Shown: one piece after another, positions 7,681 through 64,000 of the stretch
Numbering within the stretch: position 1 is the first letter of the stretch
Layout: the number at the start of each line of letters is the position of its first letter
From: a bacterium
GTDB lineage: Bacteria > Patescibacteriota > Patescibacteriia > JAACEG01 > JAGUWE01
Reading direction: 5' to 3'
Length of the DNA stretch: 64,000 nucleotides
Assembly (NCBI GenBank): GCA_043798995.1
Contig: JAZDOD010000011.1
Span: forward strand, 4,737 to 68,736
Notes under the pieces: generated by a model
Databases searched by the model: none
Seen by the model: only the letters and a program-made list of their open reading frames with translations
Told to the model about the DNA's origin: nothing
Made by a program: the position numbers and the translations under genes

Positions 7681-7745
7681 TTCCGCCCGAGGCGTGCGCC
7701 CGAGGCCCATCCGCCTCTGGCGGAGATCCGCCTTTGGCGGAAACT
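7681..7745. repeat. 64-bp palindromic MITE-like repeat (family B: TTCCGCC...CCGCCTTTGGCGGAA), intergenic copy
   Basis: Near-identical to copies at 13117-13180 and (reverse-complement) 46184-46245; terminal inverted repeat TTCCGCC/GGCGGAA. Confidence 0.7.
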
Positions 7746-11907: not shown

Positions 11908-11908
11908 T

Positions 11909-12075
11909 GTCATTGCGAGTCATGCCTTTGACAGGGTGTGGCAATCTCATACTTTTTTTGTCATCCTGAACGGAGTGAAGGATCTCACGGGAGGCCATAA
12001 GCCGACCCGTGTTTTTTTCGCGGGTCGCAAGCTCCCGCGAGATTCCTCGGGCTACACCCTCGGAATGACATTTAA
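11909..12075. repeat. Two adjacent MITE-like elements (TGTCATTGCGAG...GCAATCTC end, then a TGTCATCCTGA...GAATGACAT element with nested hairpins)
   Basis: First matches the left end of the GIY-YIG unit at 28841; second is paralogous to 17881-18025. Confidence 0.6.
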
Positions 12076-12756: not shown

Positions 12757-12852
12757 TGTCATTCCTGCGGAAGCAGGAATCCAGAGAAGTTATTTTATCA
12801 ACCAATCCTGACAAATTAAAATCTAGATTCCGCATCAAGTGCGGAATGACAT
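12757..12852. repeat. MITE-like element, family A (TIR GTCATTCC/GGAATGAC enclosing two palindromic hairpins)
   Basis: TGTCATTCCTGCGGAAGCAGGAATCCAGA ... GATTCCGCATCAAGTGCGGAATGACAT; same ends as the GIY-YIG unit at 19161-19542. Confidence 0.65.
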
Positions 12853-12878: not shown

Positions 12879-14021
12879 ATGAAAAGTAACACAAAAAAGA
12901 ACTTAAGTCAAGGCACAAACAATCGATATCATATTATCACCCATGGTTGTCAGATGAATGTTTCTGACAGCGAAAAAATCGTCGGTCTTTTGGAAAGGCA
13001 GGGTTATCAGAAAGCTAAAGATGCTAAATCGGCCAATTTAGTAGTAATTAATGTTTGTTCGGTGCGCCAGTCGGCGATGGACCGCGTTTATAGTAAAATA
13101 AAAGAATTACGAATTTCCGCCCGAGGCGTGCGCCAGAGGTCCATCCGCCTTTGGCGGAGATCCGCCTTTGGCGGAAAGAATTTAAAATTATTCCCTGAGC
13201 AAAGTCGAAGGGTAAGAATAATTTTAGCGGGATGCCTTTTAGAGACAGATAAAAAGAAATTAAAAGATAAAGTTGATGAGATTTGGTATCCTGACAAATA
13301 TTTTAGCATGGCTTCTTGCCGTGAAAATAAAAATTTAGCTTACGTGCCGATTATGACGGGGTGTAATAATTTTTGCGCCTATTGCGTCGTGCCGTATACC
13401 AGAGGTAGGGAAAAATCAAGATCAGCGTTAGAGATTATTAAGGAAGTAAAAAGATTAATTAAAAGTGGCTATAAAGAAATTGTGTTGATAGGGCAGAATG
13501 TTAATAGCTATTCATGTAACATGGAACATGAAACCTGTAACACAATTAATTTTCCAAAATTATTGAAAATTATCAATGATTTGCCGGGTGATTTTTGGTT
13601 GCGATTTATGACGAGTCATCCTAAGGATATGTCGGATGAACTGATTGAGGCGGTGGCAAAATGCGGGAAAGTCAAAAAAGAAATTCACCTGCCAATCCAA
13701 AGCGGCGATGACGAAATTTTAAAAAAAATGAATCGTGGCTACACTGTGAAAAAATATAAAAATTTAATTAAAAAAATCCGTCAAAAAATACCCGGCGTTA
13801 AAATTTCTACTGACGTGATTGTCGGTTTTCCCGGCGAAACAAAAAAACAATTTCAAAATACAGCCAAGCTTTTCCGCCAAATTAAATTTAACAAGGCCTA
13901 CATTGCCAAATATTCTCCTCGTCATGGCACGGCTGCGGCTAAGCTCAAAGATGATGTTTCACCGCAGGAAAAGAAAAGACGCTGGCAGATTTTAGAAAAA
14001 ATAGCTAATCAAAAGAAATAA
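12879..14021 (+). CDS. miaB: tRNA methylthiotransferase (MiaB/RimO radical-SAM MTTase family) carrying an in-frame repeat insertion
   Basis: MTTase N-domain HGCQMNVSDSE, radical SAM CNNFCAYCVVPYTRG, TRAM region; in-frame foreign peptide from the repeat at 13117-13180. Confidence 0.85.
   Translation: MKSNTKKNLSQGTNNRYHIITHGCQMNVSDSEKIVGLLERQGYQKAKDAKSANLVVINVCSVRQSAMDRVYSKIKELRISARGVRQRSIRLWRRSAFGGKNLKLFPEQSRRVRIILAGCLLETDKKKLKDKVDEIWYPDKYFSMASCRENKNLAYVPIMTGCNNFCAYCVVPYTRGREKSRSALEIIKEVKRLIKSGYKEIVLIGQNVNSYSCNMEHETCNTINFPKLLKIINDLPGDFWLRFMTSHPKDMSDELIEAVAKCGKVKKEIHLPIQSGDDEILKKMNRGYTVKKYKNLIKKIRQKIPGVKISTDVIVGFPGETKKQFQNTAKLFRQIKFNKAYIAKYSPRHGTAAAKLKDDVSPQEKKRRWQILEKIANQKK
13117..13180. repeat. 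Family-B 64-bp palindromic repeat inserted in frame within miaB
   Basis: Near-identical to 7681-7745; encodes SARGVRQRSIRLWRRSAFGGK without stop codons. Confidence 0.7.
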
Positions 14022-14029
14022 ATAAAAAT

Positions 14030-15058
14030 ATGTCAACTCTTTCACTTAAACCACCAAAAATTATCGCTGTTTTAGGAACAACCGCTTCGGGCAAAACCAA
14101 GCTGGCAGTTAGATTAGCTTATCTGTTTAATGGTGAGATTGTCTCAGCTGACAGCCGACAGGTTTATCAAGGTATGGATATCGGGACAGGGAAAGATCTT
14201 GACGATTATATCATCAAAGTCAAAAGTCCCATGCCTACCGGCCCGCTTCGCCGTAGCTTCAGCGAGGCGAGCAGGCAGGAAAAGTCAAAAGTCAAAATTT
14301 TTGAAATTCCATATTATTTAATTGATGTGGTAAGCCCCAAAAAGCAGTTTAATCTGGCGGATTATCAACGTTTGGCTTATCAGGCAATTGATAAAATTTT
14401 AAAAAAAGGCAAACTGCCAATCTTAGCCGGCGGCAGCGGACTCTACCTTCAGGCCGCGGTTGATGGCTGGCTTTTATCAAAAGCAAGACCAGACAGAAAA
14501 TTACGCCAAGAATTAGAAAAGAAGAAAACGAGCTGGCTTTTTTCTTTTTTAAAGAAACTGGATAAAGATTTTGCTAAAAAAGTCAGTCAAAGTGATCAAA
14601 AAAATAAAAGGCGACTGATTAGATATATTGAAATAAAATTAGTCGAGACAAAGAGATTGCCACACTCCTTTCAATCGCTCGCAATGACAGGAGGTGGATA
14701 TGATACCTTACTTCTCGGCCTTACTTATCCCAAAGAAACTTTAAACCAAAGAATTGATAAAAGACTGGAGGAGCGGCTTGAACAAGGTCTGATTGAAGAA
14801 GTTAAAAGATTGCGTCAACAAGGTTTAAACTGGCAGCGTTTAGAGCAATTCGGCCTGGAGTATAAATTTGTGGCTTATTATCTGCAGGGCAAATTAGATT
14901 ATGAAGAAATGGCAGAAAAATTAAAAACAGCAATTCAGCAATTTGCTAAAAGGCAACTTACTTGGTTTCGGCGCTGGCAGAAAATGGGGGCTAAAATTCA
15001 TTGGATAAAAAGTGAAAATGAGGCCAAAAAATTGATTAAAAAATTTTTAAAAAGATAA
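14030..15058 (+). CDS. miaA: tRNA dimethylallyltransferase
   Basis: P-loop GTTASGKT, SADSRQVYQGMDIGT, LAGGSGLY; ~25 extra residues from repeat at 14226-14285. Confidence 0.9.
   Translation: MSTLSLKPPKIIAVLGTTASGKTKLAVRLAYLFNGEIVSADSRQVYQGMDIGTGKDLDDYIIKVKSPMPTGPLRRSFSEASRQEKSKVKIFEIPYYLIDVVSPKKQFNLADYQRLAYQAIDKILKKGKLPILAGGSGLYLQAAVDGWLLSKARPDRKLRQELEKKKTSWLFSFLKKLDKDFAKKVSQSDQKNKRRLIRYIEIKLVETKRLPHSFQSLAMTGGGYDTLLLGLTYPKETLNQRIDKRLEERLEQGLIEEVKRLRQQGLNWQRLEQFGLEYKFVAYYLQGKLDYEEMAEKLKTAIQQFAKRQLTWFRRWQKMGAKIHWIKSENEAKKLIKKFLKR
14226..14285. repeat. Palindromic repeat (family E) inserted in frame in miaA
   Basis: GGCCCGCTTCGCCGTAGCTTCAGCGAGGCGAGCAGGCAGG is the reverse complement of the repeat at 39950-40010; flanked by AAAGTCAAAAGTC direct repeats. 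Confidence 0.5.
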
Positions 15059-17880: not shown

Positions 17881-18025
17881 AGTGCTGTCATCCTGAGGAC
17901 GCCTTTGGCGGCCGAAGGATCTCACGGGAGGAGCGAAGCGACGACCCGTGTTCGCGGGTCGCTCATTCCGCTACACTTTATTCGCTCCCGCGAGATTCTT
18001 CACTTCGTTCAGAATGACATAATAA
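17881..18025. repeat. MITE-like element with nested hairpins (TGTCATCCTGA ... TTCAGAATGACAT), family D
   Basis: Paralogous to 11960-12075 (shared GAAGGATCTCACGGGAGG, CGCGGGTCGC, CTCCCGCGAGATTC). Confidence 0.6.
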
Positions 18026-19160: not shown

Positions 19161-19542
19161 TGTCATTCCTGCGGAAGCAGGAATCCAGACGATTAAAGAT
19201 CATAATACAGATCTTGCCAGTTAGGATTTGATTTTTCAATTAATTCTAATTTCCATTTTCTCTTCCATTTTTTTAATCTTTTTTCACCCTCGATAGCACT
19301 TTCTATACTAGCCGTTTCTTCGTAATAAACTAAATTATGGATTTTATACTTTTTCGTAAAACCGGAAATTAAATCGTTTTTATGTTCGTAAATCCTCTTT
19401 TTTAAATTTGATGTCACTCCGATATATAGAGTACCATTTCTTTTACTTGCCAAGATATAAACGTAATAAGATTTCATTGTTTTCTGGATCCCGCATCCCG
19501 CCTGCATTAAAATTACGGCGGGCAGGCAAGTGCGGGATGACA
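19161..19542. mobile_element. ~382-bp GIY-YIG-encoding unit bounded by inverted hairpin ends (TGTCATTCCTGCGGAAGCAGGAATCCAGA ... TCTGGATCCCGCAT...GTGCGGGATGACAT)
   Basis: Both ends occur fused, without the gene, as the 61-bp MITE at 55868-55928. Confidence 0.6.
19193..19477 (-). CDS. GIY-YIG nuclease family small protein
   Basis: MKSYYVYILASKRNGTLYIGVTSNLKKRIYEH...; the first 22 codons of the listed ORF lie in the right hairpin end, so start moved to M23. Confidence 0.8.
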   Translation of the reverse strand: MKSYYVYILASKRNGTLYIGVTSNLKKRIYEHKNDLISGFTKKYKIHNLVYYEETASIESAIEGEKRLKKWKRKWKLELIEKSNPNWQDLYYDL

Positions 19543-28840: not shown

Positions 28841-29230
28841 TGTCATTGCGATCCGCCAGCTGGCGGAGAAGCAATCTCTTCCTTAATTTATGAAACACAA
28901 AAAATACTATGTCTATATAATGACTAATAAAACTAACTCCACGCTTTATAGCGGTGTAACAAATAATCTTAAAGAGAGAGTCTATCAACATAAAGGCAAA
29001 TTAATCGAAGGATTTACTAAAAAGTATAACATTAATAAATTAGTTTATTATGAGGAGTTTAACAATGCTTACGATGCAATCGCTCGAGAGAAACAAATTA
29101 AAGCGGGTTCAAGGAAAAAGAAAATTGAACTAATTGAGAAAGAAAATAAAAATTGGAAGAATTTAAGCGAAGATTGGTAAAGTGAGATTGCCGCGTCGTC
29201 CTGCCTGCGGCGGGACTCCTCGCAATGACA
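28841..29230. mobile_element. ~390-bp GIY-YIG-encoding unit with symmetric ends (TGTCATTGCGA-hairpin-GCAATCTC ... GAGATTGC-hairpin-TCGCAATGACA)
   Basis: 11-bp TIR TGTCATTGCGA/TCGCAATGACA plus inner inverted pair GCAATCTC/GAGATTGC; isolated ends at 11909 and 50748. Confidence 0.6.
28890..29180 (+). CDS. GIY-YIG nuclease family small protein
   Basis: YYVYIMTNKTNSTLYSGVTNNLKERVYQHK; paralog of 19193-19477. Confidence 0.8.
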   Translation: MKHKKYYVYIMTNKTNSTLYSGVTNNLKERVYQHKGKLIEGFTKKYNINKLVYYEEFNNAYDAIAREKQIKAGSRKKKIELIEKENKNWKNLSEDW

Positions 29231-29244
29231 AAAACACAAACTCC

Positions 29245-32013
29245 ATGCCGGAAAATAAAAAAATAGAATCAACCCCGCAACTTATCAATTGCCCGACTTG
29301 TGCCGGCAGAGGCAAGGTTGAAGGAAAAACCTGTCCTTTTTGTTTAGGTTTGGGCCAGATGGCTTTCTTGGACGGCCAGTTTTTATATTGGGATAAAAAA
29401 ATCAGCTTTTTAGCTATTCTTCAGCGAAAAACCGAACAGACGGTCAAAAATATTTTGGAGTTTAGTTTGTTTTTCTTTGGCATTTTGGGTTTGACCGTCT
29501 TGGCTTGGGAAATTTGGCAAGTTGGCGCCGCCAATTTTTTTAACTGGGAATATTTTTTCCATCAGGAAAAAATCATGCTTATCTTCTGGTTGAGTATTCT
29601 GACCGATATGTATTTTTTTTATCGTAAAGACCGAGAATTTACCGCCAAAGAAAAAGTCAGAAAAAGAAAATATGGCGCAATAGAAATACCCTTGGTTTTA
29701 GAAGAAAATTACTGGCCGGATTTAGCTAAAATTGCCAAAGACAATAAAATTGAAGTTTCACAGGTGATGTCGCAGGAAGCATTGATTGCCGTTGAACAAT
29801 CCTGGCAGATGGCCCAGCGCCTAAAACTTAAAGAAGTTTTACCAATTCATCTTTTAGCTCATTTATTTTTTTCTGATAAAGTAAGAATTATTTTTGCCCG
29901 ATTAGGCATTAATGTTGAGGAAGTGCTGACTAAAATCAGGCATTTAATTGAAGGGGGGAATCACCCTCCGGAAGAAGCGCCCGGCATTTCTCCCGAGCTT
30001 AAGCAGATTTTTTTCTGGGCTTATCAACATGCCTTCCTCAGCCAGCGGAAGGAAGTTGATGTGGTGGAATTGCTTTTGGCCTTAAGCCAGAAAAATCCGA
30101 GTATCCAGGATTTATTTTTGGACTTGGAAATTGATCAGGATAAAATTAGAAATGTAGTTGAGTGGGTCAAGATTCAGGAAAGCTTAAGGCAGCGCTGGCT
30201 GCGCTTCAGGCATCGGGCTGCCTGGAAGCCCAAGGGCTCAATGGATCGGGCTATGACAGCTGTGGCCACGCCCTTTTTGGATTATTTCAGCCAGGACTTG
30301 ACATTATTAGCCAAAATGGGTTATTTAGATTTATGCGTTGGCCGGGAAAAAGAAATAGAAGAAATTTTTCGGGTCATTGAAGCCAATCGGCAGAGCGTGA
30401 TTCTGGTCGGCAATCCCGGCGTGGGCAAAACCACCATTATTGAAGGCATTGCCGGATTGATGGTTTCGGAAGATGTGCCGAATCTCATTCAGGACAAAAG
30501 GTTTGTCAGTTTAAGCGCGGCCAAATTAATTAGCGGCGCTTCTCCCTCCGAGGCCCAAGGCCGGCTTTTAAGCGTTATTGAAGAAATCCGACGCGCCGGC
30601 AATATTGTTTTGTTTATCAGCGATATCCAGGAAATGGTTGGCATTACCCCCGGCGGCGAAGAAAGTTTAGATTTGGCCGGAGTGCTTTTCCAAGCGCTGG
30701 CTAAAAATTATTTTTTCTGTTTTGCTACCACCACGCCGTCTGATTACACCCGTTATTTGGAAGCAGCTTCGGGTTTAAGTCAGGTTTTTCAGAAAATTGA
30801 GGTTGCCGAGCCGGATGTTAATCAGACGATTCAGATTTTGGAAGCTAAAAGCGCCCGCATTGAAGCGCAAAACCAAGTTTATTTTTCCTATAATGCCATA
30901 GAAAGAACGGTTCAGCTGGCTATCCGCTATATTCACGATAGATTCCTGCCGGAAAAAGCCATTCGCATTTTGGAACAGGTGGCAATTTATGCGCAAAAGA
31001 AAAAAGGCGCTAATACCATTGTTGGAGCTGAAGATGTGGCGGAAATAATTTCTCAAAAAACCAACATTCCGGTAACCAAAGTGACCGAAGAAGAATCGGA
31101 AAAACTTTTGACTCTGGAAGACAAAATTCACGAGAGAATAGTTGATCAAGAAGAAGCTGTTAAAATAGTGGCCTCGGCCTTGCGCCGGGCCAGAGCAGAA
31201 CTCAGAGACATTAAGCGGCCGATTGTTAATCTGCTTTTCTTGGGTCCGACCGGCGTTGGTAAAACCGAAGTTTCCAAAACCGTGGCTGAAGTCTACTTCG
31301 GCTCCGAAGAAAATATGATTCGTTTGGATATGAGCGAATATCAGGAGCAGACCAGCGTCTATCGGATGATTGGCTCGCCTCTGGGCAGGCAGCGAGAGCC
31401 CGGCTACTTAACCGAAGCGGTCAGAAATAATCCTTTTTCTTTGGTACTCCTAGATGAAGTTGAAAAAGCTCATCCGGATATTTTAAATTTATTTTTACAA
31501 GTAATGGATGATGGTCGTCTGACTGATAATTTAGGCCGGACTATTGATTTTACCAATGTCATTTTAATCGCCACTTCCAATGCCGGCACCGGTTTTATTC
31601 AGGAAAAAATGAAAGAAGGTTGGTCGGTTGAAAAAATTAAACAAGGATTAATTGAGATGGAAATTAAGCAATATTTTCGGCCGGAATTTCTCAACCGTTT
31701 TGACGGCATTGTGGTTTTTAAACCTTTGAGTATGACCGAAGTGGTAGAAATCGCTAAATTACTTTTAAAGAAAGTTGCCCAAAGATTAGTTGACAAAGGA
31801 ATTAATTTAGAAGTCAGTGATGAAGCCGTTTCAGAATTAGCCCAGGCCGGTTTTGACCCGCAATTTGGCGCGAGACCCTTGCGGCGTGTCATCCAAGAGC
31901 GAATTGACGACAGTTTAGCCCATTATTTACTGACTCAAAAACTTAGCCGTCGCGACACCATTGTTTTTCAAGCCGGGGGAGTGATTGAAGTGAAAAAAGC
32001 CAGGAAGTTGTAA
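29245..32013 (+). CDS. Membrane-anchored ClpA/ClpC-like double AAA+ ATPase with N-terminal DnaJ-type zinc finger
   Basis: CPTCAGRGKVEGKTCPFCLGLG, two TM helices, Clp-N repeats, Walker A GNPGVGKT and GPTGVGKT, TGF loop; start moved to M22 of listed ORF. Confidence 0.85.
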   Translation: MPENKKIESTPQLINCPTCAGRGKVEGKTCPFCLGLGQMAFLDGQFLYWDKKISFLAILQRKTEQTVKNILEFSLFFFGILGLTVLAWEIWQVGAANFFNWEYFFHQEKIMLIFWLSILTDMYFFYRKDREFTAKEKVRKRKYGAIEIPLVLEENYWPDLAKIAKDNKIEVSQVMSQEALIAVEQSWQMAQRLKLKEVLPIHLLAHLFFSDKVRIIFARLGINVEEVLTKIRHLIEGGNHPPEEAPGISPELKQIFFWAYQHAFLSQRKEVDVVELLLALSQKNPSIQDLFLDLEIDQDKIRNVVEWVKIQESLRQRWLRFRHRAAWKPKGSMDRAMTAVATPFLDYFSQDLTLLAKMGYLDLCVGREKEIEEIFRVIEANRQSVILVGNPGVGKTTIIEGIAGLMVSEDVPNLIQDKRFVSLSAAKLISGASPSEAQGRLLSVIEEIRRAGNIVLFISDIQEMVGITPGGEESLDLAGVLFQALAKNYFFCFATTTPSDYTRYLEAASGLSQVFQKIEVAEPDVNQTIQILEAKSARIEAQNQVYFSYNAIERTVQLAIRYIHDRFLPEKAIRILEQVAIYAQKKKGANTIVGAEDVAEIISQKTNIPVTKVTEEESEKLLTLEDKIHERIVDQEEAVKIVASALRRARAELRDIKRPIVNLLFLGPTGVGKTEVSKTVAEVYFGSEENMIRLDMSEYQEQTSVYRMIGSPLGRQREPGYLTEAVRNNPFSLVLLDEVEKAHPDILNLFLQVMDDGRLTDNLGRTIDFTNVILIATSNAGTGFIQEKMKEGWSVEKIKQGLIEMEIKQYFRPEFLNRFDGIVVFKPLSMTEVVEIAKLLLKKVAQRLVDKGINLEVSDEAVSELAQAGFDPQFGARPLRRVIQERIDDSLAHYLLTQKLSRRDTIVFQAGGVIEVKKARKL

Positions 32014-34364: not shown

Positions 34365-34449
34365 ATTTTGGAAGGGTCGCATTGCGCCTCTTCGGCGCAT
34401 TTATGCGCCAAGTTGGCGCATCCGCCGTTGAGGCGGAAGTGGAAAATAT

Positions 34450-34710
34450 ATGTATTATTTTTATGTTTTACAATTTAAGAATAATAAAAAATTATATAAA
34501 GGAATTACAAATAATTTAAGAAAAAGAATAACAGATCATCGTTCTGGTCAGTCAAAATTTACTTCACGAAACGGCGATTTTAATTTAATTTTTTATGAAG
34601 CGTATTTAGATAAAAGAGATGCCATAGAGGCGGAAAGATATTTTAAGAGCGGTCACGGCAGAGAAGTATTGAGGCAAAAATTAAAATATTATTTTGGAAG
34701 GGTCGCATAG
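34450..34710 (+). CDS. GIY-YIG nuclease family small protein; C-terminus overlaps tRNA-Ser
   Basis: MYYFYVLQFKNNKKLYKGITNNLRKRITDH; stop codon TAG at 34708-34710 inside the tRNA. Confidence 0.8.
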   Translation: MYYFYVLQFKNNKKLYKGITNNLRKRITDHRSGQSKFTSRNGDFNLIFYEAYLDKRDAIEAERYFKSGHGREVLRQKLKYYFGRVA

Positions 34711-34780
34711 TGGTCTAGTGCGCCTGCTTGGAGAGCAGGTATGCCGCAAGGCATCGCGAGTTCAAATCTCGCCCCTTCCG
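34696..34780 (+). tRNA. tRNA-Ser (anticodon GGA)
   Basis: Hand-folded: acceptor GGAAGGG/CCCTTCC, 3-bp D stem, anticodon stem CCTGC/GCAGG loop TTGGAGA, long variable arm ATGCC-GCAA-GGCAT, T-loop TTCAAAT, discriminator G. Confidence 0.85.
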
Positions 34781-34848
34781 TTTGAGTTTTTTGCGGCAAA
34801 AATTATCAAAGCACTTGGCGTTTCTATTGAGGAGTTAATAAAATAACT

Positions 34849-37099: not shown

Positions 37100-37993
37100 T
37101 TGAATATGAAGATTTCAATTGGCATCATCGGCTTGCCCAATGTGGGCAAATCAACCTTATTTAAGCTCTTAACCAAGCAGGAAGCCAAAATTGCCAATTA
37201 TCCTTTTGTCACCATTGATCCCAATGTGGGCGTGGTCGCCATGCCTGATGAGCGCTTGGCGCAGGTGGCCAAAGCCATTGGTTCAAAAGCAATTTTTCCG
37301 GCGGTTTTTGAATTTGTTGATATCGCCGGTTTGGTCAAAGGCGCCCACGAGGGAGCGGGTTTGGGCAATCAATTTTTATCGCATATCCGCGAAGTTGACG
37401 CTATTGTCCATTTAGTCAGAATTTTTAAAGACAGCGATATTATCCAATTTGATGCCGCCAGTAATTCCGTTAGCGATTTTGAAACAATTTTAGAAGAATT
37501 AAAACTAAAAGATGAAGAGTCGCGCGAAAAAATCAATCTTTTAAGCGCCAAGCCGCAATTAGTGGTTTTAAACGGCCAAGCCGAGGAAATACCGCCCGAA
37601 TTAATTAATAAATTTAAATCATTAAATCAGCCCTATCTTCTGATTAATCTTAAGAATGAACTGGGCGAAGAAGATTTAAAAAAAATATTTGGCGAATTTC
37701 TTAAATTTCTTAAATTGATCACTTTTTTTACAGCCAATGAAAATGAAGCGCGCAGCTGGTTTGTCAAAGTTGGGACTAAAGCCCCGCTAGCAGCCGGCGT
37801 GATTCACACTGATTTTGAACAAAAGTTCATTAAAGCAGAAGTGATTAATTGGCAAATATTGATTGATATTGCCCGTTCGGCAAGCTCAGGGCAGGGCAAC
37901 TGGCAACAGGCCAAGCAAAAAGGTTTGGTCCGCCTGGAAGGTAAGGAATATATTGTTCAAGAAGGAGACGTGGTTTTAATAAAGCATGGTTAA
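37100..37993 (+). CDS. ychF: Ribosome-binding ATPase YchF (Obg-family GTPase fold)
   Basis: GIIGLPNVGKSTLF, ANYPFVTIDPNVG, FVDIAGLVKGAHEGAGLGNQFL; short C-terminal domain. Confidence 0.85.
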   Translation: MNMKISIGIIGLPNVGKSTLFKLLTKQEAKIANYPFVTIDPNVGVVAMPDERLAQVAKAIGSKAIFPAVFEFVDIAGLVKGAHEGAGLGNQFLSHIREVDAIVHLVRIFKDSDIIQFDAASNSVSDFETILEELKLKDEESREKINLLSAKPQLVVLNGQAEEIPPELINKFKSLNQPYLLINLKNELGEEDLKKIFGEFLKFLKLITFFTANENEARSWFVKVGTKAPLAAGVIHTDFEQKFIKAEVINWQILIDIARSASSGQGNWQQAKQKGLVRLEGKEYIVQEGDVVLIKHG

Positions 37994-44940: not shown

Positions 44941-46050
44941 ATGATAAAAACCAAAAAAATTTGTCCTGAGCACTTCGATTTCACTCAGTGTAAACTTCGT
45001 CAAAGGGTTTTAGTGGCCATGTCCGGCGGAGTTGATTCGTCGGTGGCGGCTTGGCTTTTAAAAAAACAAGGATTTGAGGTTAGGGGAGTTTTTTTGAATT
45101 TAGGGCAAGTTAAATATAAAGAATCAGTTGTGGCAACTAAAAGAGTAGCTAAAAAGATAGGCATTCCCTTTCGAGTTATTGATATAAGAAAAGAATTTGA
45201 AAAGGAAGTGGTTGATTATTTCTTGCAAAGTTATTTCCATGGCCTGACACCTAATCCTTGTGTAGTTTGCAACCAGAAAATTAAGTTTGAGACCCTTCTT
45301 AAATTGGCTAAAAAATATAGGGCCGATTTTGTGGCAACGGGTCATTATGCCCGGCTCCGCCGTAGCCGACAGCCGACAGCCGACAGCCGACATCTCTTAA
45401 TCCTTTGGCAAGCCAAAGACGAAAAAAAGGATCAGTCGTATTTTTTATATACTTTGAAGCAAAAACAATTGGCCAAAATATTATTCCCCCTGGGCAATTT
45501 AACCAAAGAGGAAGTAAAAAAAATAGCGGACAAAAATTATTTACCTTATTTCAAAAAAGAAAGTCAGGATATTTGTTTTTTATTTTGTGAAACTTCTGAA
45601 TTTTTAAAACAAAATCTTAAACTAAAGCCCGGGCCGATTGTCACAACAGCGGGCAAACTCATTGGCCGACACGAGGGCTTGCCGCTTTATACTTTAGGCC
45701 AGCGCCGAGCAGTTAAAATCGGCGGCATCGGGCCTTTTTATGTGGTCGGCCGCGATTTTAAAAAAAATCAATTAATTGTCACGGGCAAATTTGACGATTC
45801 GGTTTTGTATTCAGATAAACTTTTAGCCGGTCAAGTTAACTGGCTTGCTGGCGAAAGCCCAAAATTGCCTTTGAAATGTCGGGCGCGAGTCCGTTACCAA
45901 CAGCCATTGGTTGATTGCTTGGTCAGCAAAAAAGGCAAAAACTATCTGGTTAAATTCAAGCAAAAACTGCGCGCTATCACACCGGGACAGTCGGTGGTTT
46001 TCTATAAAAATAAAGAGATATTAGGCGGGGGAGTTATCGTTGACGAATAG
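44941..46050 (+). CDS. mnmA: tRNA-specific 2-thiouridylase
   Basis: PP-loop VAMSGGVDSSVAA, ATGHYARL, DQSYFLY; contains heptanucleotide repeat. Confidence 0.9.
   Translation: MIKTKKICPEHFDFTQCKLRQRVLVAMSGGVDSSVAAWLLKKQGFEVRGVFLNLGQVKYKESVVATKRVAKKIGIPFRVIDIRKEFEKEVVDYFLQSYFHGLTPNPCVVCNQKIKFETLLKLAKKYRADFVATGHYARLRRSRQPTADSRHLLILWQAKDEKKDQSYFLYTLKQKQLAKILFPLGNLTKEEVKKIADKNYLPYFKKESQDICFLFCETSEFLKQNLKLKPGPIVTTAGKLIGRHEGLPLYTLGQRRAVKIGGIGPFYVVGRDFKKNQLIVTGKFDDSVLYSDKLLAGQVNWLAGESPKLPLKCRARVRYQQPLVDCLVSKKGKNYLVKFKQKLRAITPGQSVVFYKNKEILGGGVIVDE
45364..45391 (+). repeat. Tandem heptanucleotide repeat (AGCCGAC)x4 inside mnmA
   Basis: Four perfect tandem 7-nt units translated as SRQPTADSR. Confidence 0.8.
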
Positions 46051-46142
46051 GCCAAAATCTTGTAATCTTTAACTTGTAACCCGCAACTTATTTTTTTGGT
46101 ATTTATGTTATAAGTTACAAGTTTTAAGTTTCAATAATTTAT

Positions 46143-48095
46143 ATGACAGCTAAAGAAGTCCGCGAAAAATTTTTAGATTTTTTTTCCGCCAAAGGCGGAT
46201 CTCCGCCAAAGGCGGATGGACCTCTGGCGCACGCCTCGGGCGGAAAAGGTCATACCATTATCCCTTCGGCGCCGCTTGTTCCAGAAAACGATCCAACGGT
46301 GCTTTTTACTACGGCCGGTATGCATCCTTTGGTGCCTTATCTTCTGGGCGAAGACCATCCGGGTGGGAAAAGGGTGGCCAATGTTCAGATTTGCCTAAGA
46401 ACCGATGATATTGAAGAAATCGGCGACAATCGGCATTTGACTTTTTTTGAAATGCTGGGCAATTGGAGTTTCGGAGACTATTTTAAGCGCGAGGCGATTG
46501 AGTGGAGTTTTGAATTATTAACCTCTAAGGATAAAGGTTTTGCTTTGGATCCGAAACGATTATACGTCACAGTTTTTGGCGGCGTTAAAGAATTAGGTTT
46601 AGAGCGAGACGAAAAGTCAATTAAAATCTGGCAAGAAGTTTTTGCCAAAGCTGGTTTAAAAGCTGAAGTTGCCGACGAAGGTAATATTTGGAAAAATAAA
46701 AATATAAGAATTTTTCCTTTGGGCATGAAAGATAATTTTTGGGGACCGGTTGGAGAGATTGGTCCTTGCGGTCCTTGCACCGAAATGTATTATGATCTCC
46801 ACCCAAAAAAAAAACACAGCAAAGTATCATTTGATGATTTGATTGATCAGTTTAGATTTTTGGAAATTTGGAATGATGTTTTTATGGAATTTAATAAACT
46901 GTCCGATGATAAATATGAATTGTTAAAGCAAAAAAACGTTGATACGGGTATGGGCGTGGAACGAATGTTAGCCGTCTTAAATAATAAAGAGAATATTTTT
47001 GACATAGAACTTTTTAGCGCAGTTTTTGAAAGTATAAAAAAATTGTCGGATAAAAATTATAATAATTGTCAAAAGGAATTTAGAATTATAGCCGACCACT
47101 TAAAAGCCGCGGTTTTTATCTTGGCGGAAAACATTGAACCGTCTAACGTTGATCGCGGCTATGTGCTTCGCCGTCTTATTCGCCGGGCCATTCGTTGCGG
47201 CAAACAAATCGGCATTAAAACTCCTTTCACCCATAAAATCGCCGAAGTTATCATTAATCTTTATCAAGATCCGTATTTGCATCTAAAGAAAAATCAGGAT
47301 TTTATTATTGAGCAACTGGTCAGAGAAGAAGAAAAGTTTGGCGAAACCCTGGAAAAAGGTTTAAAACAATTTAAATTTTTAATCAGGCGTAAATTAATAA
47401 TTACTCCCGTTGAACCGGGATCGCCAACCACCGATATAAAAGATAAAATGAAAATTACTGGCAGAGAAGCGTTTGATTTATATCAGACCTACGGTTTCCC
47501 CTTAGAGTTAATAAAAGAATTGGCAAGAGAAAATAGATTTACAGTTGATGAAGATGGTTTTAATGAGGAAATGAAACACCATCAAGAGCTTTCGCGCACT
47601 GCCGCGGCCGGTATGTTCAAGGGCGGTCTTTCAGACCATTCGGAAATTGCTACCCGCTATCATACGGCCACGCATTTGCTTTTGGCGAGCTTACGGAAAG
47701 TTTTGGGCGAACACGTTTTTCAGCGCGGCTCAAATATTACGGCCGAAAGATTGCGTTTTGATTTTTCCCATTCGGAAAAGTTGACGCCCGAGCAGATTAA
47801 ACAGGTTGAAGATTTGGTTAATCAAAAAATTCAAGAAGGTCTGCCGGTCAAGGTTGAAGAAATGACGGTTAACGAAGCCAAAGCCCAAGGCGCTATCGGC
47901 GTTTTTGAGCAAAAATACGGCGAGCGAGTTAAGGTTTATACGATTGGCCTCTCGACAAGCTCGGGGTCTATTTTCAGTCAGGAAATTTGCGGCGGACCGC
48001 ATATTAAAAATACCCGACAGCTTGGTAAATTTAAGATTATTAGAGAAGAGGCTAGCTCTGCTGGTGTAAGGAGAATAAAAGCGGTATTGGAGTGA
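46143..48095 (+). CDS. alaS: Alanine--tRNA ligase (short form lacking C-terminal domain) with in-frame repeat insertion
   Basis: FLDFFSAKG...HTIIPSAPLVPENDPTVLFTTAGM, editing-domain HTATHLL, CGGPH; 650 aa. Confidence 0.9.
   Translation: MTAKEVREKFLDFFSAKGGSPPKADGPLAHASGGKGHTIIPSAPLVPENDPTVLFTTAGMHPLVPYLLGEDHPGGKRVANVQICLRTDDIEEIGDNRHLTFFEMLGNWSFGDYFKREAIEWSFELLTSKDKGFALDPKRLYVTVFGGVKELGLERDEKSIKIWQEVFAKAGLKAEVADEGNIWKNKNIRIFPLGMKDNFWGPVGEIGPCGPCTEMYYDLHPKKKHSKVSFDDLIDQFRFLEIWNDVFMEFNKLSDDKYELLKQKNVDTGMGVERMLAVLNNKENIFDIELFSAVFESIKKLSDKNYNNCQKEFRIIADHLKAAVFILAENIEPSNVDRGYVLRRLIRRAIRCGKQIGIKTPFTHKIAEVIINLYQDPYLHLKKNQDFIIEQLVREEEKFGETLEKGLKQFKFLIRRKLIITPVEPGSPTTDIKDKMKITGREAFDLYQTYGFPLELIKELARENRFTVDEDGFNEEMKHHQELSRTAAAGMFKGGLSDHSEIATRYHTATHLLLASLRKVLGEHVFQRGSNITAERLRFDFSHSEKLTPEQIKQVEDLVNQKIQEGLPVKVEEMTVNEAKAQGAIGVFEQKYGERVKVYTIGLSTSSGSIFSQEICGGPHIKNTRQLGKFKIIREEASSAGVRRIKAVLE
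46184..46245. repeat. Family-B 64-bp palindromic repeat (reverse orientation) in frame within alaS codons ~15-35
   Basis: Reverse complement matches 13117-13180; encodes GSPPKADGPLAHASGGKG between conserved FFSAKG and HTII. Confidence 0.7.
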
Positions 48096-48122
48096 ATAGA
48101 AATTAGTGATTAGAATTTTTCT

Positions 48123-48191
48123 TGCGGGATCGTTTCTAACGGCCCGCCAAAGGCGGGTAAATAAGACAGCGGCCGGCGCTTGTCCCGCACA
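48123..48191 (+). other. tRNA-Gln-like remnant (acceptor arms retained, interior replaced by hairpins)
   Basis: Begins TGCGGGATCGT and ends GTCCCGCA like tRNA-Gln at 48549; interior CCCGCCAAAGGCGGG. Confidence 0.35.
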
Positions 48192-48196
48192 AAACT

Positions 48197-48230
48197 GGGG
48201 GGTCGTCTAATGGTAGGACACCAGCCTTTT
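48197..48230 (+). other. Diverged duplicate of tRNA-Gln 5-prime half, ending in the anticodon loop
   Basis: GGGGGGTCGTCTAATGGTAGGACACCAGCCTTTT vs TGCGGGATCGTCTAATGGTAGGACCGCGGCCTTTG. Confidence 0.45.
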
Positions 48231-48306
48231 CCGCCGGAGGCGGACTCGCCTTTTCCGCCAAAGGCGGATCTGCCTTGGGCATGAGGCGAGGAAGCCGAAA
48301 ATAAAA

Positions 48307-48645
48307 ATGTATTACACTTATATATTAAAAAGCAAAAAAGACGGAATTCGTTATGTTGGTAGCGGTGAAGATGTATTAGAAAGATTACGTCGGCATAATA
48401 AAGGTGACCATCAATTTACAAAAGGGCACCGACCTTGGGAATTAATTTATCAAGAAAAATATAGCACAAGATCAGAAGCTATGAGGCGTGAAAAATTTTT
48501 AAAATCAGGTCAAGGAAGAAAAATTTTAGATGAGGTTCTCGGCAAGGCTGCGGGATCGTCTAATGGTAGGACCGCGGCCTTTGAAGCCGTTAATCATGGT
48601 TCGAATCCATGTCCCGCAGCCTTGCCGAGAAATAGTAAAGAGTAG
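48307..48645 (+). CDS. GIY-YIG nuclease family small protein; reading frame runs through tRNA-Gln
   Basis: MYYTYILKSKKDGIRYVGSGEDVLERLRRHNKG; last ~30 codons overlap the tRNA, true C-terminus uncertain. Confidence 0.7.
   Translation: MYYTYILKSKKDGIRYVGSGEDVLERLRRHNKGDHQFTKGHRPWELIYQEKYSTRSEAMRREKFLKSGQGRKILDEVLGKAAGSSNGRTAAFEAVNHGSNPCPAALPRNSKE
48549..48619 (+). tRNA. tRNA-Gln (anticodon TTG)
   Basis: Hand-folded: acceptor TGCGGGA/TCCCGCA with U1-A72, D stem GTCT/GGAC, anticodon stem GCGGC/GCCGT loop CTTTGAA, T stem CATGG/CCATG loop TTCGAAT, discriminator G. Confidence 0.85.
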
Positions 48646-48720
48646 GAGAGACGGCCTTTTCCACTGGGGGCGGACTTGCTTGTCCCGCCTTGGCGGGGCG
48701 GCCTCCTTGCCCCGCTATAG

Positions 48721-48760
48721 GCGGGGTGAAGAGCCGTTAATCATGGCCCGCCCCGCACCA
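48721..48760 (+). other. tRNA-Gln 3-prime-half-like fragment ending in CCA
   Basis: TGAAGAGCCGTTAATCATGG matches the tRNA from anticodon loop through T stem, then CCCGCCCCGCACCA. Confidence 0.35.
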
Positions 48761-48840
48761 ATCCTAAGTAAAATTTTCCTAATTTTTCCATTTGTGCTAA
48801 AATTAAGTTAAAAGATATTTAACATTAATTTTTTAATTTT

Positions 48841-54624: not shown

Positions 54625-54667
54625 CTTGATAATTCATTGTTGTCTTGCCGCAGAGTTGCCTTCGTCT

Positions 54668-54790
54668 GTCATTCCCGCGGAAGCGGGAATCCAGACGCCG
54701 TTCCTGCGAAAGCAGGGAGCCAGGGGATGTGGATTCCCGTTTTCACGGGAATGACAAAAAAAGAAAAAGTGCGGGATGACAAATAGAACG
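54668..54790. repeat. Compound MITE-like hairpin repeats (family A variants)
   Basis: TGTCATTCCCGCGGAAGCGGGAATCCAGA ... GGATTCCCGTTTTCACGGGAATGACA ... GTGCGGGATGACA. Confidence 0.6.
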
Positions 54791-55867: not shown

Positions 55868-55960
55868 ATTTTGACTTCTTCTCTTTGTCATTCCTGCGGA
55901 AGCAGGAATCCAGAGCTGGATCCCGCATCAAGTGCGGGATGACATAGATGAGGCACAGGA
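55868..55960. repeat. MITE: fused left and right ends of the GIY-YIG unit (gene deleted) plus extra hairpin
   Basis: TGTCATTCCTGCGGAAGCAGGAATCCAGAGCTGGATCCCGCATCAAGTGCGGGATGACAT. Confidence 0.7.
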
Positions 55961-56550: not shown

Positions 56551-56700
56551 TTTTTACCCTGTCATTCCGGACTCCCTTCTGTCATTCCTGCGAAACTTGT
56601 CCTCGAGAAATCGGGGAGCAGGAATCCAGGAGAATTGATATGGTTCCCCGTTTTCACGGGGACGGAGTCTGGATCCCGTATCTAGTACGGGATGACAAAG
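56551..56700. repeat. Cluster of MITE-like hairpin repeats (family A variants)
   Basis: GTCATTCCGG..., TGTCATTCCTGCGAAAC...GCAGGAATCCAGG, GGTTCCCCGTTTTCACGGGGACGG, GGATCCCGTATCTAGTACGGGATGACA. Confidence 0.6.
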
Positions 56701-59391: not shown

Positions 59392-59460
59392 TTCTCTTTG
59401 TCATCCCGCACTTGATGCGGGATCCAGCTCTGGATTCCTGGTCAAGCCAGGAATGACAGA
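59392..59460. repeat. MITE (reverse orientation of the fused-end element, variant hairpin)
   Basis: TGTCATCCCGCACTTGATGCGGGATCCAGCTCTGGATTCCTGGTCAAGCCAGGAATGACAGA. Confidence 0.65.
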
Positions 59461-59757: not shown

Positions 59758-59900
59758 TTATTTGTTTAAATTTTCGATTCCATTAATATATGTCATTCCT
59801 GTGAAAACAGGAATCCAGAGCTGGATCCCGCATCTACCGCCTTTGGCGGGACAAGCAAGTGCGGGATGACAATAAGAGAAATTCAGGATGACATTGAAAA
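59758..59900. repeat. Compound repeat: TTTGTTTATTTGTTTAAATTTT end plus family-A MITE hairpins
   Basis: Shares terminus with 50489 and 60150; contains ATTCCTGTGAAAACAGGAAT and CCGCCTTTGGCGGG. Confidence 0.55.
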
Positions 59901-60300: not shown

Positions 60301-63300
60301 CAAAACCATATGGACAACAAAACATTCAAAGTCAAAATGCTGGTTGTTTTTGCCATCACGGCAATTACTTTGCAACTTGGCATTTTTAGTATTCAAGCTT
60401 TTGCTCAAGAAGCAGATGCGCCAACCGAAGCGGTTGAGGCCGCAACGGAACCGGCTGTAGAGCCAGCACCCGCCACCGAAGGTGTCGAGGCGATGCCCGC
60501 CACCGAAGGTGTCGAGGCAACGCCGGCTATAGAAGAAACTGCCTTGGCAGCCGAAGAGGCTGCTCCGACAGAAGAACCCGCCTCCGATGGAGTCGAGGCA
60601 GGGCTTAATTATTGTCCGGTAAATCCTGAAATCACTACTGCCGCTGCCAGCGAACCAGCTCCCGCTCCGGTTTTAACAACTGACAAAGCTGATTACGCTC
60701 CTACAGAAAAAGTCACCATTTTCGGCAGACTATTTCAAGCTTTGCAAAATTTAATTTTAAGAATTGTCGGCGGCTTTCCAGATGGGAGCCAGCAAGTGAC
60801 CCATGAAGACACGGTTACTACCGACGACCAAGGCGCTTTTACTTATGAATACCAACTGGACGGCACCTACCGCCCGGATTATACCGTTACCGCCAGCAGC
60901 GAAGCCGGCGAAGAATTGGCGAGAACGACCTTTACGGATCCTCCCGCCGGATTTAATCCTTCAGTTTCAATTGATCAATGTGCAAACGGTGGTATCGGTA
61001 ATACTCCCGAAAGCTGTGCAACCAAACCGCCTCTTTCAAATGCCACTTATCAATCAGGTAATGTTAATGGGCAAAAAGCTCATTGGCAAGAAGGAGATGT
61101 ATTGCCGTATAGAGCTGTTTTAAAAGATTTAGCCGCTGGGATTAACAGAGTAACTTTTAGTTTTGATACTGCTAAAGGTAGCGAAATGAAACATGCAATA
61201 GATTATCTTGCTAGTTTTGATTATACCGAAACAACAGGCCCAGCAACGCCAAATCATGCAAATCAGAATAATCCTTGTGCCGATACAATCGTCGGATGCA
61301 ATCCGGCAGCTCCGACCGCGACAGCAAATATAAATGTTCCAAGTTATTTTACAACAGGATATCCAATAGCATGTGCTAATGGAGCTTGGGCTGGTGGTAA
61401 TCCAATTGCTAATCAGCAAATCAAAGCCTGGGGTAATATAGATTCTTCAATGATTCTCACTTATCCTGATGGCGGGATTCCAACTTCCGGTGATTGTTCT
61501 CCAAGATTCACAATTGAGTTTAATGTAACAGTCGCGCATTCAGATGTAGTTATCGCTTGGGGCGGACACGTAGCGGCAAATCAAGATCCCGGAGCCGGAG
61601 GTTATTGGGGTACAGGAAATGCCGTACCAACTGGATCACCTTATCATATGCATGCAGGGTTTCCCCAGGAAAGTCCTAGCGGGACATTTTATCAAGTAGG
61701 CAATCAAGATTTACAGCTTGCCTCTTCTGCCATATCCGCACCTGGTTCAATCGTCATTATTAAAAATACTGTAGGCGGTGATAATACATTTAATTATACG
61801 GCAACTGGTGGAGGAATAACTTCGCCTTTTTCTATCACGACTAGCGGCGGAGCTAATAGCGTAACTTTTGGCAGTTTAGCAACCGGAGCCGCTGGCGGAA
61901 GTCGTAGCATTACAGAAAATACTCAACCAAGCGGTTGGGGATTTACAAGTCTTTCATGCCAGGTTACGGTCGCAGGTGATGGAACAACAGCATATTCTAT
62001 AACAGGACCGACCGTTAACGTAACAAATTTAGGAGGCGGCGCTTCTTTAACCTGTACTTATACTAACACACTTCAAACAGGTCATGTTATTATCGTCAAA
62101 GATGCAATTCCTAATGATGCCCAAAATTTTGCATTCGCGAATAACTTCGGAAATGGAAATCCAGCATCATTTAATTTAGATGATGATGCCGACGGCACTT
62201 TGTCTAACTCCAGAGATTCCGAAGTCTTAGCTGGTACTTATGCCGTTTCCGAAACCGTTCCATCCGGCTGGGATCTTACTTCTGCCACTTGTGATCATGG
62301 CACAATTGGAGCTATACAAGTTTTAGCCGGACAGACAACTACCTGCACTTTTACCAACACCAAGCGTGGTTCAATTACTATTATCAAAAATACAATTGGT
62401 GGTGACGGAACATTTAATTACACCAGTAATTTTGGTGTAAGTTCGTTAACTACCAGTGGCGGCACTGCTTCGCAAACTGTTAATGATTTAGTTCCAGGAA
62501 GCGGTTATAGTATTTCAGAAACCGTTCCAGCTGGTTGGGATCTAACCAGCGCAACCTGCGATCACGGTACGATTGGCGCTATACAAGTTTTAGCCGGACA
62601 AACAACTACCTGTACCTTCACCAATACCAAACGCGGACATATTATTGTTGATAAAGTAACCGATCCGTCTGGCGATCCGCAAAGCTTTGCCTTTACCACA
62701 ACCGGTTCTGGCTATAACGGTTTTTCATTAACTGATGCCGCAGCCCCGAACAACCAAGAAGTTGCACCAGGCGCTTATTCGGTTGCCGAATCTGTTCCTG
62801 CCGGCTGGGATCTGACTTCTGCCACTTGCGATATGGGCGAGACGCCCGCGAGTTTAGATGTCGAGCCTGGCGAAACAGTAACTTGTACCTTTACCAACCA
62901 AAAAGACGCCATTATAATTATTGAAAAGCAGACCTTGCCAGATGGTGATTCACAAGTTTTTGACTTTGACTTAAGTTACGGGGATGGCGATGCTGACTTG
63001 TCTGACGGCCAAACTGATAACTCCGGTGATTTAGATCCGGGTACCTATTCGGCTTGGGAAAACGTTCCTGCCGGTTGGGACTTTACTTCCGCTGTTTGCA
63101 GCGATCAAAGCCCCGTAGGAGCTATATCTTTACAGGCCGGTGAAACAGTCACTTGTGTCTTCACCAACACCAAGCGCGGACATATTATCGTTGATAAAGT
63201 AACCATTGGCGGAGATGCCACTTTCTCGTTTGACGCCAGCGGCGGAACAGATCCAGCTTATGCTAATTTCACTCTTACCGGCGCACAAACGCCTAATAAT

Positions 63301-64000
63301 CAAGAATTAAAACCAGGATCTTATTCCGTATCCGAAGGCGCATTGGCCGGTTGGGATTTAACTAACACAGTTTGCGTCAGTTCAATTGGCGACACGGAAA
63401 CCGCCGGCAGCTTAGAATTAGACGCTGGCGAGACCGTTACCTATACCTTCACTAATACCAAGAAACCAACCTTAACAGTAAATAAAGTTTTAGTTCCCTC
63501 AAGTGATAATGGTTTATTCAATTTACAAATAGATAGTTCTACTGCCGGTACCGGCGCAAATGTCGGTGATGGTGGAACAACCGGAGCGGTAGAAGTGACA
63601 ATCGGCGCTCACACCGTTGGCGAAACCGCCGGCACCGGTACTGATTTATCACACTATGTAACCGTAATCAGTGGTGACTGTGCCGCTGACGGAACCGTAA
63701 GTTTAGCTGCCGGTGAAAACAAGACCTGCACTATTACCAATACTAGAAAAGGCAGCATCACAATTAAGAAGGTCACAGTTGGCGGTGATGCCAGCTTTAC
63801 CTTTACCGGTGATGTGGCCGGTTCATTAAGTAATAATCAAACAGCTACAGCTCAAGTTGTGCCCGGTACTTATCATTCAACTGAAACCGTACTTACTGGC
63901 TGGGATTTAACGAATATTACTTGCAACGATTCTGACAGTTCTGGCGTAATTAGTACTGGCGTTGCTACCTTTAATGTGGCAGCCGGTGAGGATGTCACGT
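60301..64000 (+). CDS. Giant cell-surface adhesin-like protein with tandem SpaA/CnaB-type (prealbumin-fold) domains; open at window end
   Basis: Signal peptide; A/P/E-rich linker; >=9 ~100-aa repeats with GxYxxxExxxAGWDLTxxxC ... TCTFTNTKRG; frame checked codon by codon, no stop through 64000. Confidence 0.8.

Follow-up and report, generated by a model that had tools for sequence, protein, structure and literature searches.

A small hairpin-array repeat read in frame in alaS and other genes of Patescibacteria, probably a mobile palindromic element

The 5′ end of alaS, the gene of alanyl-tRNA synthetase (AlaRS; 46143-48095, (+) strand, 650 amino acids (aa)), contains a short GC-rich repeat in a stretch of 64,000 nucleotides (nt) from a bacterium of the Patescibacteria, or candidate phyla radiation (CPR) (assembly GCA_043798995.1, contig JAZDOD010000011.1). 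This stretch is called the window below. The segment is probably a copy of a small, modular, mobile palindromic element of these bacteria that is tolerated in frame. Its core, at 46185-46244 on the (-) strand, is the exact reverse complement of a copy at 13116-13175 (+) in miaB (12879-14021, (+), 380 aa) over the 60 nt TCCGCC...GGCGGA. An earlier note, made from the letters of the window, had described a 64-bp repeat in reverse orientation to a miaB copy: the presence of the repeat and the exact complementarity are borne out, while the extent is refined, the inserted unit being the 60-nt core with its four local hairpins. A repeat search of the window recovered the two loci as arms of 67 nt (13114-13180 and 46180-46246) with 99% complementarity, 0 such matches being expected in shuffled sequence.

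A third copy (7682-7741, (+)) is intergenic, between dnaE and the next open reading frame (ORF). It carries the family-consensus variant and displays three differences from the other two copies (~95% identity). The miaB and alaS copies are 100% identical and have in common private variants missing from the intergenic copy; as their flanks are unrelated, at least some moves of the repeat must be non-homologous. A covariance model built from the copies scores 92.9 bits for the alaS copy (46184-46247) and 97.8 bits for the intergenic one.

In alaS, the core begins on a codon boundary (46185-46143 = 42), directly after Phe14 and before the KGH motif, and the ORF runs through it as FLDFF-SAKGGSPPKADGPLAHASGG-KGHTIIPSAPLVP with no stop. 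The 20-codon core stands in place of two codons, a net gain of 18 residues relative to AlaRS orthologs (FFxxKGH), in agreement with the in-frame, stop-free insertion of about 18 residues noticed earlier. The copy in miaB is likewise in frame and is read as SARGVRQRSIRLWRRSAFGG. MiaB orthologs possess a short loop there (...KVNKFY-KTKKIIL...) where the window protein has about 31 extra residues, composed of the element and a second, unrelated GC-rich insert, FPEQSRRV. As to AlaRS, 116 of the 120 closest homologs have no insert at the site, with the consensus FFxxKGH, and the nearest relative (P0002, locus L002; 85% identity) has an empty site, GAT TTT TTC CAA GAA AAA AAG CAC. The relatives are thus mostly insert-free and do not natively carry the segment. 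The alignment to Aquifex aeolicus AlaRS (PDB 1RIQ) picks up again exactly at GKGH. In the AlphaFold2 model of the window AlaRS, with a mean predicted local distance difference test score (pLDDT) of 86.6, the insert falls between helix 3-14 and strand 37-39; residues 18-32 have pLDDT < 50 and no secondary structure, and the insert is predicted to form a disordered excursion at this helix-to-strand junction. Intein blocks are absent from the 20-residue insert. The junction-spanning tryptic peptide predicted for it is ADGPLAHASGGK, with a shorter one, GGSPPK.

The top AlaRS and MiaB homologs belong to Parcubacteria-group metagenome-assembled genomes (MAGs). The window has 39% GC and holds pheT, dnaE, thrS, miaB, miaA, gatB, thyA, rplA/K, nusG, gyrB, clpB, purD, mnmA, alaS and type IV pilus genes, a set typical of the housekeeping genes of Patescibacteria.

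The core consists of four tandem hairpins of 13-17 nt each: TCCGCC-CGA-GGCGTG, (TG)CGCC-AGA-GGTCCA, TCCGCC-TTT-GGCGGA and, after a GA spacer, TCCGCC-TTT-GGCGGA again. The GC content of the element is 66-70% (66% over the alaS segment 46180-46246) against 39% for the genome. For a single copy, the structure of lowest free energy is one long hairpin (-38 to -42 kcal/mol, z = -4 to -6). This fold and the model of four local hairpins were compared by covariation tests on 15 copies from different loci. The four-hairpin model leaves 99% of the cells paired and explains four pairs with compensatory double changes, a result matched by 0-2 of 500 shuffles; examples are the replacement of CCGCC/GGCGG by CCTCC/GGAGG, CAGCC/GGCTG or CTGTC/GACAG. 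The single long hairpin reaches 90% pairing, which is at control level, and the compensatory changes break it. The element is therefore best described, on the strength of these changes in aligned copies, as an array of four local hairpins. Its ends, TTYTCCGCC and GGCGGARAA, are terminal inverted repeats that are also the arms of the terminal hairpins. Shorter versions exist in the family, with two hairpins (30 nt, SAKGGSASGG) or one (15 nt, SAKGG), in frame and in the same phase. The encoded residues vary exactly at the positions encoded by the loops, which argues for a constraint at the level of the nucleic acid and not of the protein. Rfam searches in gathering and E-value modes gave no family, intron or ribozyme match for the element.

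The proposal that the repeat is free of stops in at least one frame on each strand is exceeded, since all six frames are open. This holds for 3.4% of mononucleotide shuffles and for 0.02% of random 64-mers of genome composition, so that six-frame openness is only mildly unusual for DNA so rich in GC (p about 0.03). Of 11 genic copies, 10 use a single codon phase, the core being read TCC GCC ... GGC GGA on either strand (P = 1e-4). Eight are read in the Gly/Ser/Pro/Ala-rich frame, as in alaS, and three in the Arg-rich frame, as in miaB.

The census relied on an exact core pattern of 25-27 nt, the 25-nt version of which fixes 23 positions. Among 185,579 species-representative genomes it returned seven stretches in three MAGs, one Patescibacteria MAG from a deep mine and two labelled Saccharibacteria; a metagenome collection yielded nine, five of them from Hainich samples (contig names Hain-H43/H51). 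The core was matched in Patescibacteria-type genomes and groundwater metagenomes only, and viral contigs matched neither the core nor the two-hairpin pattern. The covariance model added further diverged members within the element-bearing loci. Protein-level searches were less productive: a six-frame peptide profile run against 5.8 billion proteins gave seven weak matches, of which one in GatC was the useful one, and is unfit as a census, while a 30-aa peptide query of the representative library returned a single low-complexity false match.

The independent loci total about 13, of which about 10 lie in frame inside long ORFs with Pfam support; intergenic copies exist as well. Together with the open frames and the AlaRS alignment, this count supports the earlier suggestion that the repeat is tolerated within ORFs. 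The in-frame hosts are AlaRS in three lineages, miaB in the window, a transketolase linker, a HAD hydrolase, an MBL-fold protein, an M14/AstE-type peptidase, the C-terminus of a GH1 glycosidase, the C-terminus of GatC (P0246), and a valyl-tRNA synthetase (ValRS) that harbors three family members in one gene, at aa 54-75, 411-433 and 777-789. In the valS gene of locus L012 (1369-4080; the same in L018) two four-hairpin copies in opposite orientations are accompanied by a two-hairpin copy. The first and third copies have about 12 nt of AT-rich flank in common on each side, so that the repeated unit extends beyond the hairpins in that genome. Copies within the CAYIWX01 genome also have their own variants in common. 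Among the homologous MBL-fold genes of L013, L014 and L015 (element at 408-471 of L014 and 2970-3033 of L015), similarity is confined to one side of the element, the sequences beyond it being unrelated; the element therefore marks a rearrangement or recombination breakpoint.

The flanks of the 15 copies are strongly biased, with T at position -2 in 14 and A at +2 in all 15, giving the consensus TTY|core|RAA. The alaS junction of L010 shows the inserted DNA to be exactly the 60-nt core, between TTT TTT and GAA AAA. The same TTT|GAA junction occurs in the anticodon loops of two tRNA-Gln-like sequences downstream of alaS. In the first, a truncated tRNA-Gln, a degenerate hairpin array beginning TCCGCCGGAGGCGGA (48230-48290, (+)) follows CTTT of the anticodon loop, directly upstream of an ORF for a small GIY-YIG nuclease; the window sequence is that of the intact tRNA-Gln of L002 up to ...CCAGCCTTT, continues with TCCGCCGGAGGCGGA... 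and resumes with GAAGCCG. The array is matched by the covariance model with 32 bits (48227-48301). The second insertion, as read from the sequence, is 68 nt long (48660-48727, (+)) and interrupts a further degenerate tRNA-Gln-like copy, again at CTTT|GAAG. The whole locus (48120-48765; compare 3420-3640 of L002) is a mosaic of nested insertions: the truncated copy is followed by the GIY-YIG ORF, which reads through an intact tRNA-Gln (48549-48621), and by a third, degenerate copy. The two tRNA-Gln types have exchanged roles in L002, whose GIY-YIG gene at this locus differs from that of the window.

The element recurs at one alaS junction. In the window, in L001/L007 and in L010/L021, the four-hairpin version comes after the FF codons with orientation and phase unchanged. 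The AlaRS of L001/L007 has 67% aa identity to that of the window and that of L010/L021 47%, the latter falling outside all 120 homologs in a neighbor-joining (NJ) tree. In P0012, whose copy has decayed stems, and in P0014 a two-hairpin version is found at this junction; the two belong to separate clades, and their sister sequences are insert-free. The right-hand junctions are FF|60|KGH, FF|60|EKKGH, FF|30|KSMGH and FF|30|RPEGH. Between the window and L001, 59 of 60 element positions are identical, compared with 74% nt identity over the whole gene and 57% at third positions (P = 3e-7); between the window and L010, 33 of the 37 positions that the search pattern does not fix are identical, against 54.5% gene-wide (P = 7e-6). 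By these alignments the host genes have diverged far more than the element. Each alaS copy, moreover, resembles the other copies of its own genome in its variants, and not alaS copies elsewhere. Several independent insertions into a preferred, tolerant alaS site are the most economical reading of this pattern. To note, the window and L002 alaS are 92-100% identical over most of the gene and 40-50% identical in the promoter and the first ~100 nt. In sliding windows of 60 nt, which are noisy, the promoter and 5′ end (46011-46360) form a mosaic that is closer to L001 than to L002, suggestive of a short recombination tract.

The annotation of the window offers a candidate partner for the element. 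It contains four small GIY-YIG ORFs, each in a compact hairpin-rich cassette, for which NCBIfam has no specific name. The ORF next to the tRNA-Gln array (48307-48645, (+); PF01541, E = 2e-16) may act in trans on the element. A second cassette (34366-34781, ORF 34450-34710) lies at the 5′ end of tRNA-Ser(GGA). Its 5′ side harbors three tandem hairpins (34383-34437, (+)), TGCGCC-N5-GGCGCA twice and then TCCGCC-N5-GGCGGA, stems of the same types as in the element. A 17-nt direct repeat of the tRNA 5′ end, TTTTGGAAGGGTCGCAT, brackets this cassette at 34366-34382 and 34692-34708, and the final codons of its ORF overlap tRNA-Ser. Two GIY-YIG cassettes thus sit in tRNA genes, that of tRNA-Gln following the hairpin array, with direct repeats of 17-19 nt of the tRNA 5′ end. 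Apart from the three full copies of the element, the window has five TCCGCC-N3-5-GGCGGA loci, of which three precede a GIY-YIG start by 12-77 nt (P about 4e-4). The cassettes carry the element-type hairpin unit at their 5′ side and do not share both ends of the element. Co-location points to these small GIY-YIG cassettes as the leading candidate for mobilizing it; GIY-YIG enzymes are not known to transpose ORF-less repeats.

The other two cassettes, at 19161-19542 and 28841-29230, belong to a second repeat family with TGTCAT...ATGACA inverted ends; each is ~385 nt long and surrounds a small GIY-YIG ORF. Members that lack an ORF number at least eight, measure 59-163 nt and are found at 11908-12070, 12757-12851, 17886-18019, 54667-54756, 55886-55944, 56580-56697, 59399-59458 and 59791-59871. 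The members are all intergenic. This family looks like a pair of autonomous and miniature forms around a GIY-YIG nuclease.

Several known systems resemble the element in part. Rickettsia palindromic elements (RPEs) are 105-146 bp long, form a single long stem-loop and have terminal inverted repeats of about 12 bp (PMC2229807); they reside in frame in 19 conserved genes as well as in tmRNA and RNase P RNA (PMC2229807; Ogata et al. 2000 as reviewed there), and a guanylate kinase bearing such an insert is enzymatically active (PMC2229807). The two have in common short palindromic repeats in a small AT-rich genome, found both between genes and in frame in conserved housekeeping genes, where they are tolerated as extra surface peptides; both also enter RNA genes, and neither has a known mobilizing enzyme or clear target duplication. 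The 60-nt core does not have the length and fold of an RPE, although it shares the in-frame and intergenic residence: it is 60-64 nt long, GC-rich and modular (one, two or four hairpins), its four hairpins are independent, and it occurs in Patescibacteria, where it recurs at one alaS codon junction. It is set apart from RPEs by description and not by sequence. Transposable elements of the miniature inverted-repeat kind (MITEs) that contain ORFs (ERIC, the 107-bp Correia element, YPAL) are about 100-200 bp long, with a long terminal stem and usually a TA target duplication (PMC2229807, PMC10969869). Like them, the element is non-autonomous, has terminal inverted repeats and stable RNA folds, and is sometimes fused in frame to genes; it differs by the lack of a target-site duplication, by a size about half as large and by having no known parent insertion sequence.

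Repetitive extragenic palindromes (REPs) lie outside genes and have a GTAG or CGTC tag at one of their ends (PMC3733652). REPs and their arrays (BIMEs) are also short, GC-rich imperfect palindromes with no target duplication, and the hairpins of the element would suit a single-strand DNA transposase. However, its consensus displays neither tag, most of its loci are intragenic (about 10 of 13), and a scan of 40 window ORFs revealed no Y1/RAYT gene. The GC clusters of yeast mitochondria, mostly intergenic and with an AG target duplication (PMC4478555), provide another parallel, as GC-rich hairpin modules that multiply in an AT-rich genome, with conserved stems, varying loops and modules that merge (PMC4478555). 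They differ in being organellar and mostly intergenic, whereas the rule for the element is in-frame residence in essential genes. The double-hairpin elements of fungal mitochondria, said to go back to Paquin et al. in 2000, are reportedly likewise GC-rich hairpin modules. The GIY-YIG homing-endonuclease cassettes of the window carry the same kind of hairpin, but the 60-nt element encodes nothing. Functionally, the closest known system is the Rickettsia palindromic elements, the element being no member of the RPE, MITE or REP families. No description of palindromic elements, MITEs or in-frame repeats in CPR/Patescibacteria was found in the literature searched, an absence that is not proof of novelty.

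Taken together, these features suggest the following course of events. The element would insert by a non-homologous route, with no target-site duplication, at junctions of a T-run and an A-run (TTY|RAA); in alaS, the target would lie after the second Phe codon of FLDFF, ahead of the Lys/Glu codon that precedes KGH. The ribosome could then read through it, helped by module sets that are multiples of three, six open frames and, in the phase used, small flexible residues (S-A-x-G-G per hairpin). Emerging as a disordered surface loop at a helix-to-strand junction, the insert would leave the essential AlaRS functional. Selection would purge insertions that are out of phase or disruptive, leaving the in-frame survivors, and the element would be kept and copied at the level of its DNA (or RNA) hairpins, not as a protein.

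Several observations weigh against such a mobile element read in frame. None of the 15 copies displays a target duplication, the longest direct flank match being 0-1 nt, and neither clean excision nor an insertion polymorphism has been seen, so that mobility is argued from comparison. The independent loci are few, and as most were found by the exact core pattern with its fixed positions, the diversity of the family is hidden. Loops and stems do not differ significantly in variability (p = 0.13). Translation of the insert is argued from frame and codon phase. A Pfam scan of 40 window ORFs yielded no transposase, integrase or RAYT, and ~120 kb of loci from other element-bearing genomes contain no GIY-YIG ORF. 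The window and L001 have the same odd junction, with two codons missing; taken with the 5′ mosaic among the window, L001 and L002, this indicates that part of the alaS pattern may be due to allele exchange. An ancient insertion followed by many losses would also run counter to repeated insertion, but is unparsimonious.

In its full form, the latter view holds that the element entered alaS once and was inherited vertically for a function, such as alaS regulation or a protein or nucleic-acid binding patch, while most lineages lost it. The identical site, orientation and phase in three lineages and the stems conserved through compensatory changes speak for it, as does a conservation exceeding that of the host gene, which functional selection would also predict. 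Yet the insert-bearing proteins are scattered among the 116 insert-free homologs of the NJ tree and have sisters with no insert, the right-hand junctions differ between lineages, and the stems of P0012 are decayed; the resemblance of the alaS copies to others of their own genome, the occurrence of the same element in unrelated genes and intergenic DNA, and variation confined to loop-encoded residues likewise disagree with it, and we regard it as unlikely. Somewhat better placed, although still rather doubtful as the main process, is that the insert spreads and disappears within alaS mainly by homologous recombination of 5′ segments from relatives, that is, by allele exchange akin to homing drive with no nuclease. 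CPR bacteria are thought to take up DNA, and the drop in identity between the window and L002 at the 5′ end, where the window is closer to L001, as well as the unusual junction of window and L001, fit this view. It leaves unexplained L010, which differs at its junction and has 54.5% gene-wide nt identity to the window, and the copies that sit between unrelated flanks in miaB, valS and further genes, and the 60-nt profiles on which it draws are noisy. Allele exchange at the 5′ end of alaS probably contributes in addition to independent insertion.

It is improbable that the repeat is a DNA or RNA signal used by the host, such as an array of sites for a nucleoid, uptake or regulatory protein that accumulates where tolerated, as uptake sequences do. 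Perfect 6-bp inverted repeats at a fixed 3-nt spacing, conservation across distant lineages and the hairpin unit just upstream of GIY-YIG starts would suit a signal, but copies are very scarce (3 per 64 kb here, 16 stretches in all genome and metagenome core scans), the copies move as a complete 60-nt unit and no binding partner has been identified. Even less probable is that the segment is never translated, being cut from the mRNA or bypassed by the ribosome in the manner of the GC-rich "byp" elements of yeast mitochondria. Bypass elements derived from GC clusters do exist in Magnusiomyces mitochondria, and the RNA folds very stably (-38 to -42 kcal/mol). However, every genic copy preserves the frame and is stop-free, module lengths are multiples of three, Rfam gives no intron or ribozyme match, and the strong preference for one codon phase is expected only if the segment is translated. 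Finally, two identical copies of a 64-nt repeat in one contig of a MAG could raise the suspicion of an assembly artefact, which the earlier note had named as a possible objection. This is scarcely credible: each host gene runs on correctly, in frame, to either side of its copy, the insertion recurs in the independent assemblies of related organisms (L001/L007, and L010 versus L021), and other family copies are repeated between L011 and L016 and between L012 and L018, a co-assembly MAG being compared with single-sample replicate assemblies.

Other short GC-rich, hairpin-forming segments lie in frame in further housekeeping genes, at 10268-10302 (thrS), 13191-13214 (miaB), 14224-14279 (miaA), 29182-29229 and 30187-30239 (clpB ORF), 37871-37900 (ychF) and 47946-47975 (alaS), and encode peptides such as PAEALAKAG, FPEQSRRV, ARSASSGQ and GLSTSSGSIF. 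Similar peptides (PSTSSG, PAESLAKAGP, PSLNLRGGEE) are lineage-specific inserts in other CPR AlaRS and MiaB homologs. In mnmA (tRNA 2-thiouridylase), the heptamer CAGCCGA is repeated four times in tandem and in frame (45333-45394; ...RSRQPTADSRH...). At the end of the window, a long ORF (~61400-64000) that runs off the sequence contains tandemly repeated units of about 90 aa in which the motif ...GWDLTSATCD... occurs (267-270 nt at 62221-63927; repeat families D1, D4, D6), and probably encodes a repetitive surface protein.

Selfish repeats that survive inside essential protein genes are known mainly from Rickettsia. The present element would extend the phenomenon to the CPR, in the form of a much smaller, modular and GC-rich analogue, and would account for part of the odd short insertions in CPR housekeeping proteins, a warning to annotators and structural modelers that such loops may be derived from repeats. 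More tentatively, and with the balance of probability still on the other side, Patescibacteria may harbor an undescribed class of hairpin-array mobile elements, built of 15-nt (five-codon) modules, inserting with no duplication at TTY|RAA, hitting the alaS junction and the tRNA-Gln anticodon loop repeatedly in lineages of less than 50% protein identity, residing mostly in essential genes in one phase, and acting as ORF-less partners of tRNA-targeting GIY-YIG cassettes. The recurrent alaS junction and the tRNA-Gln anticodon loops would give the element a defined target, TTY|RAA, and with a candidate nuclease partner the mechanism of insertion would become accessible to experiment.

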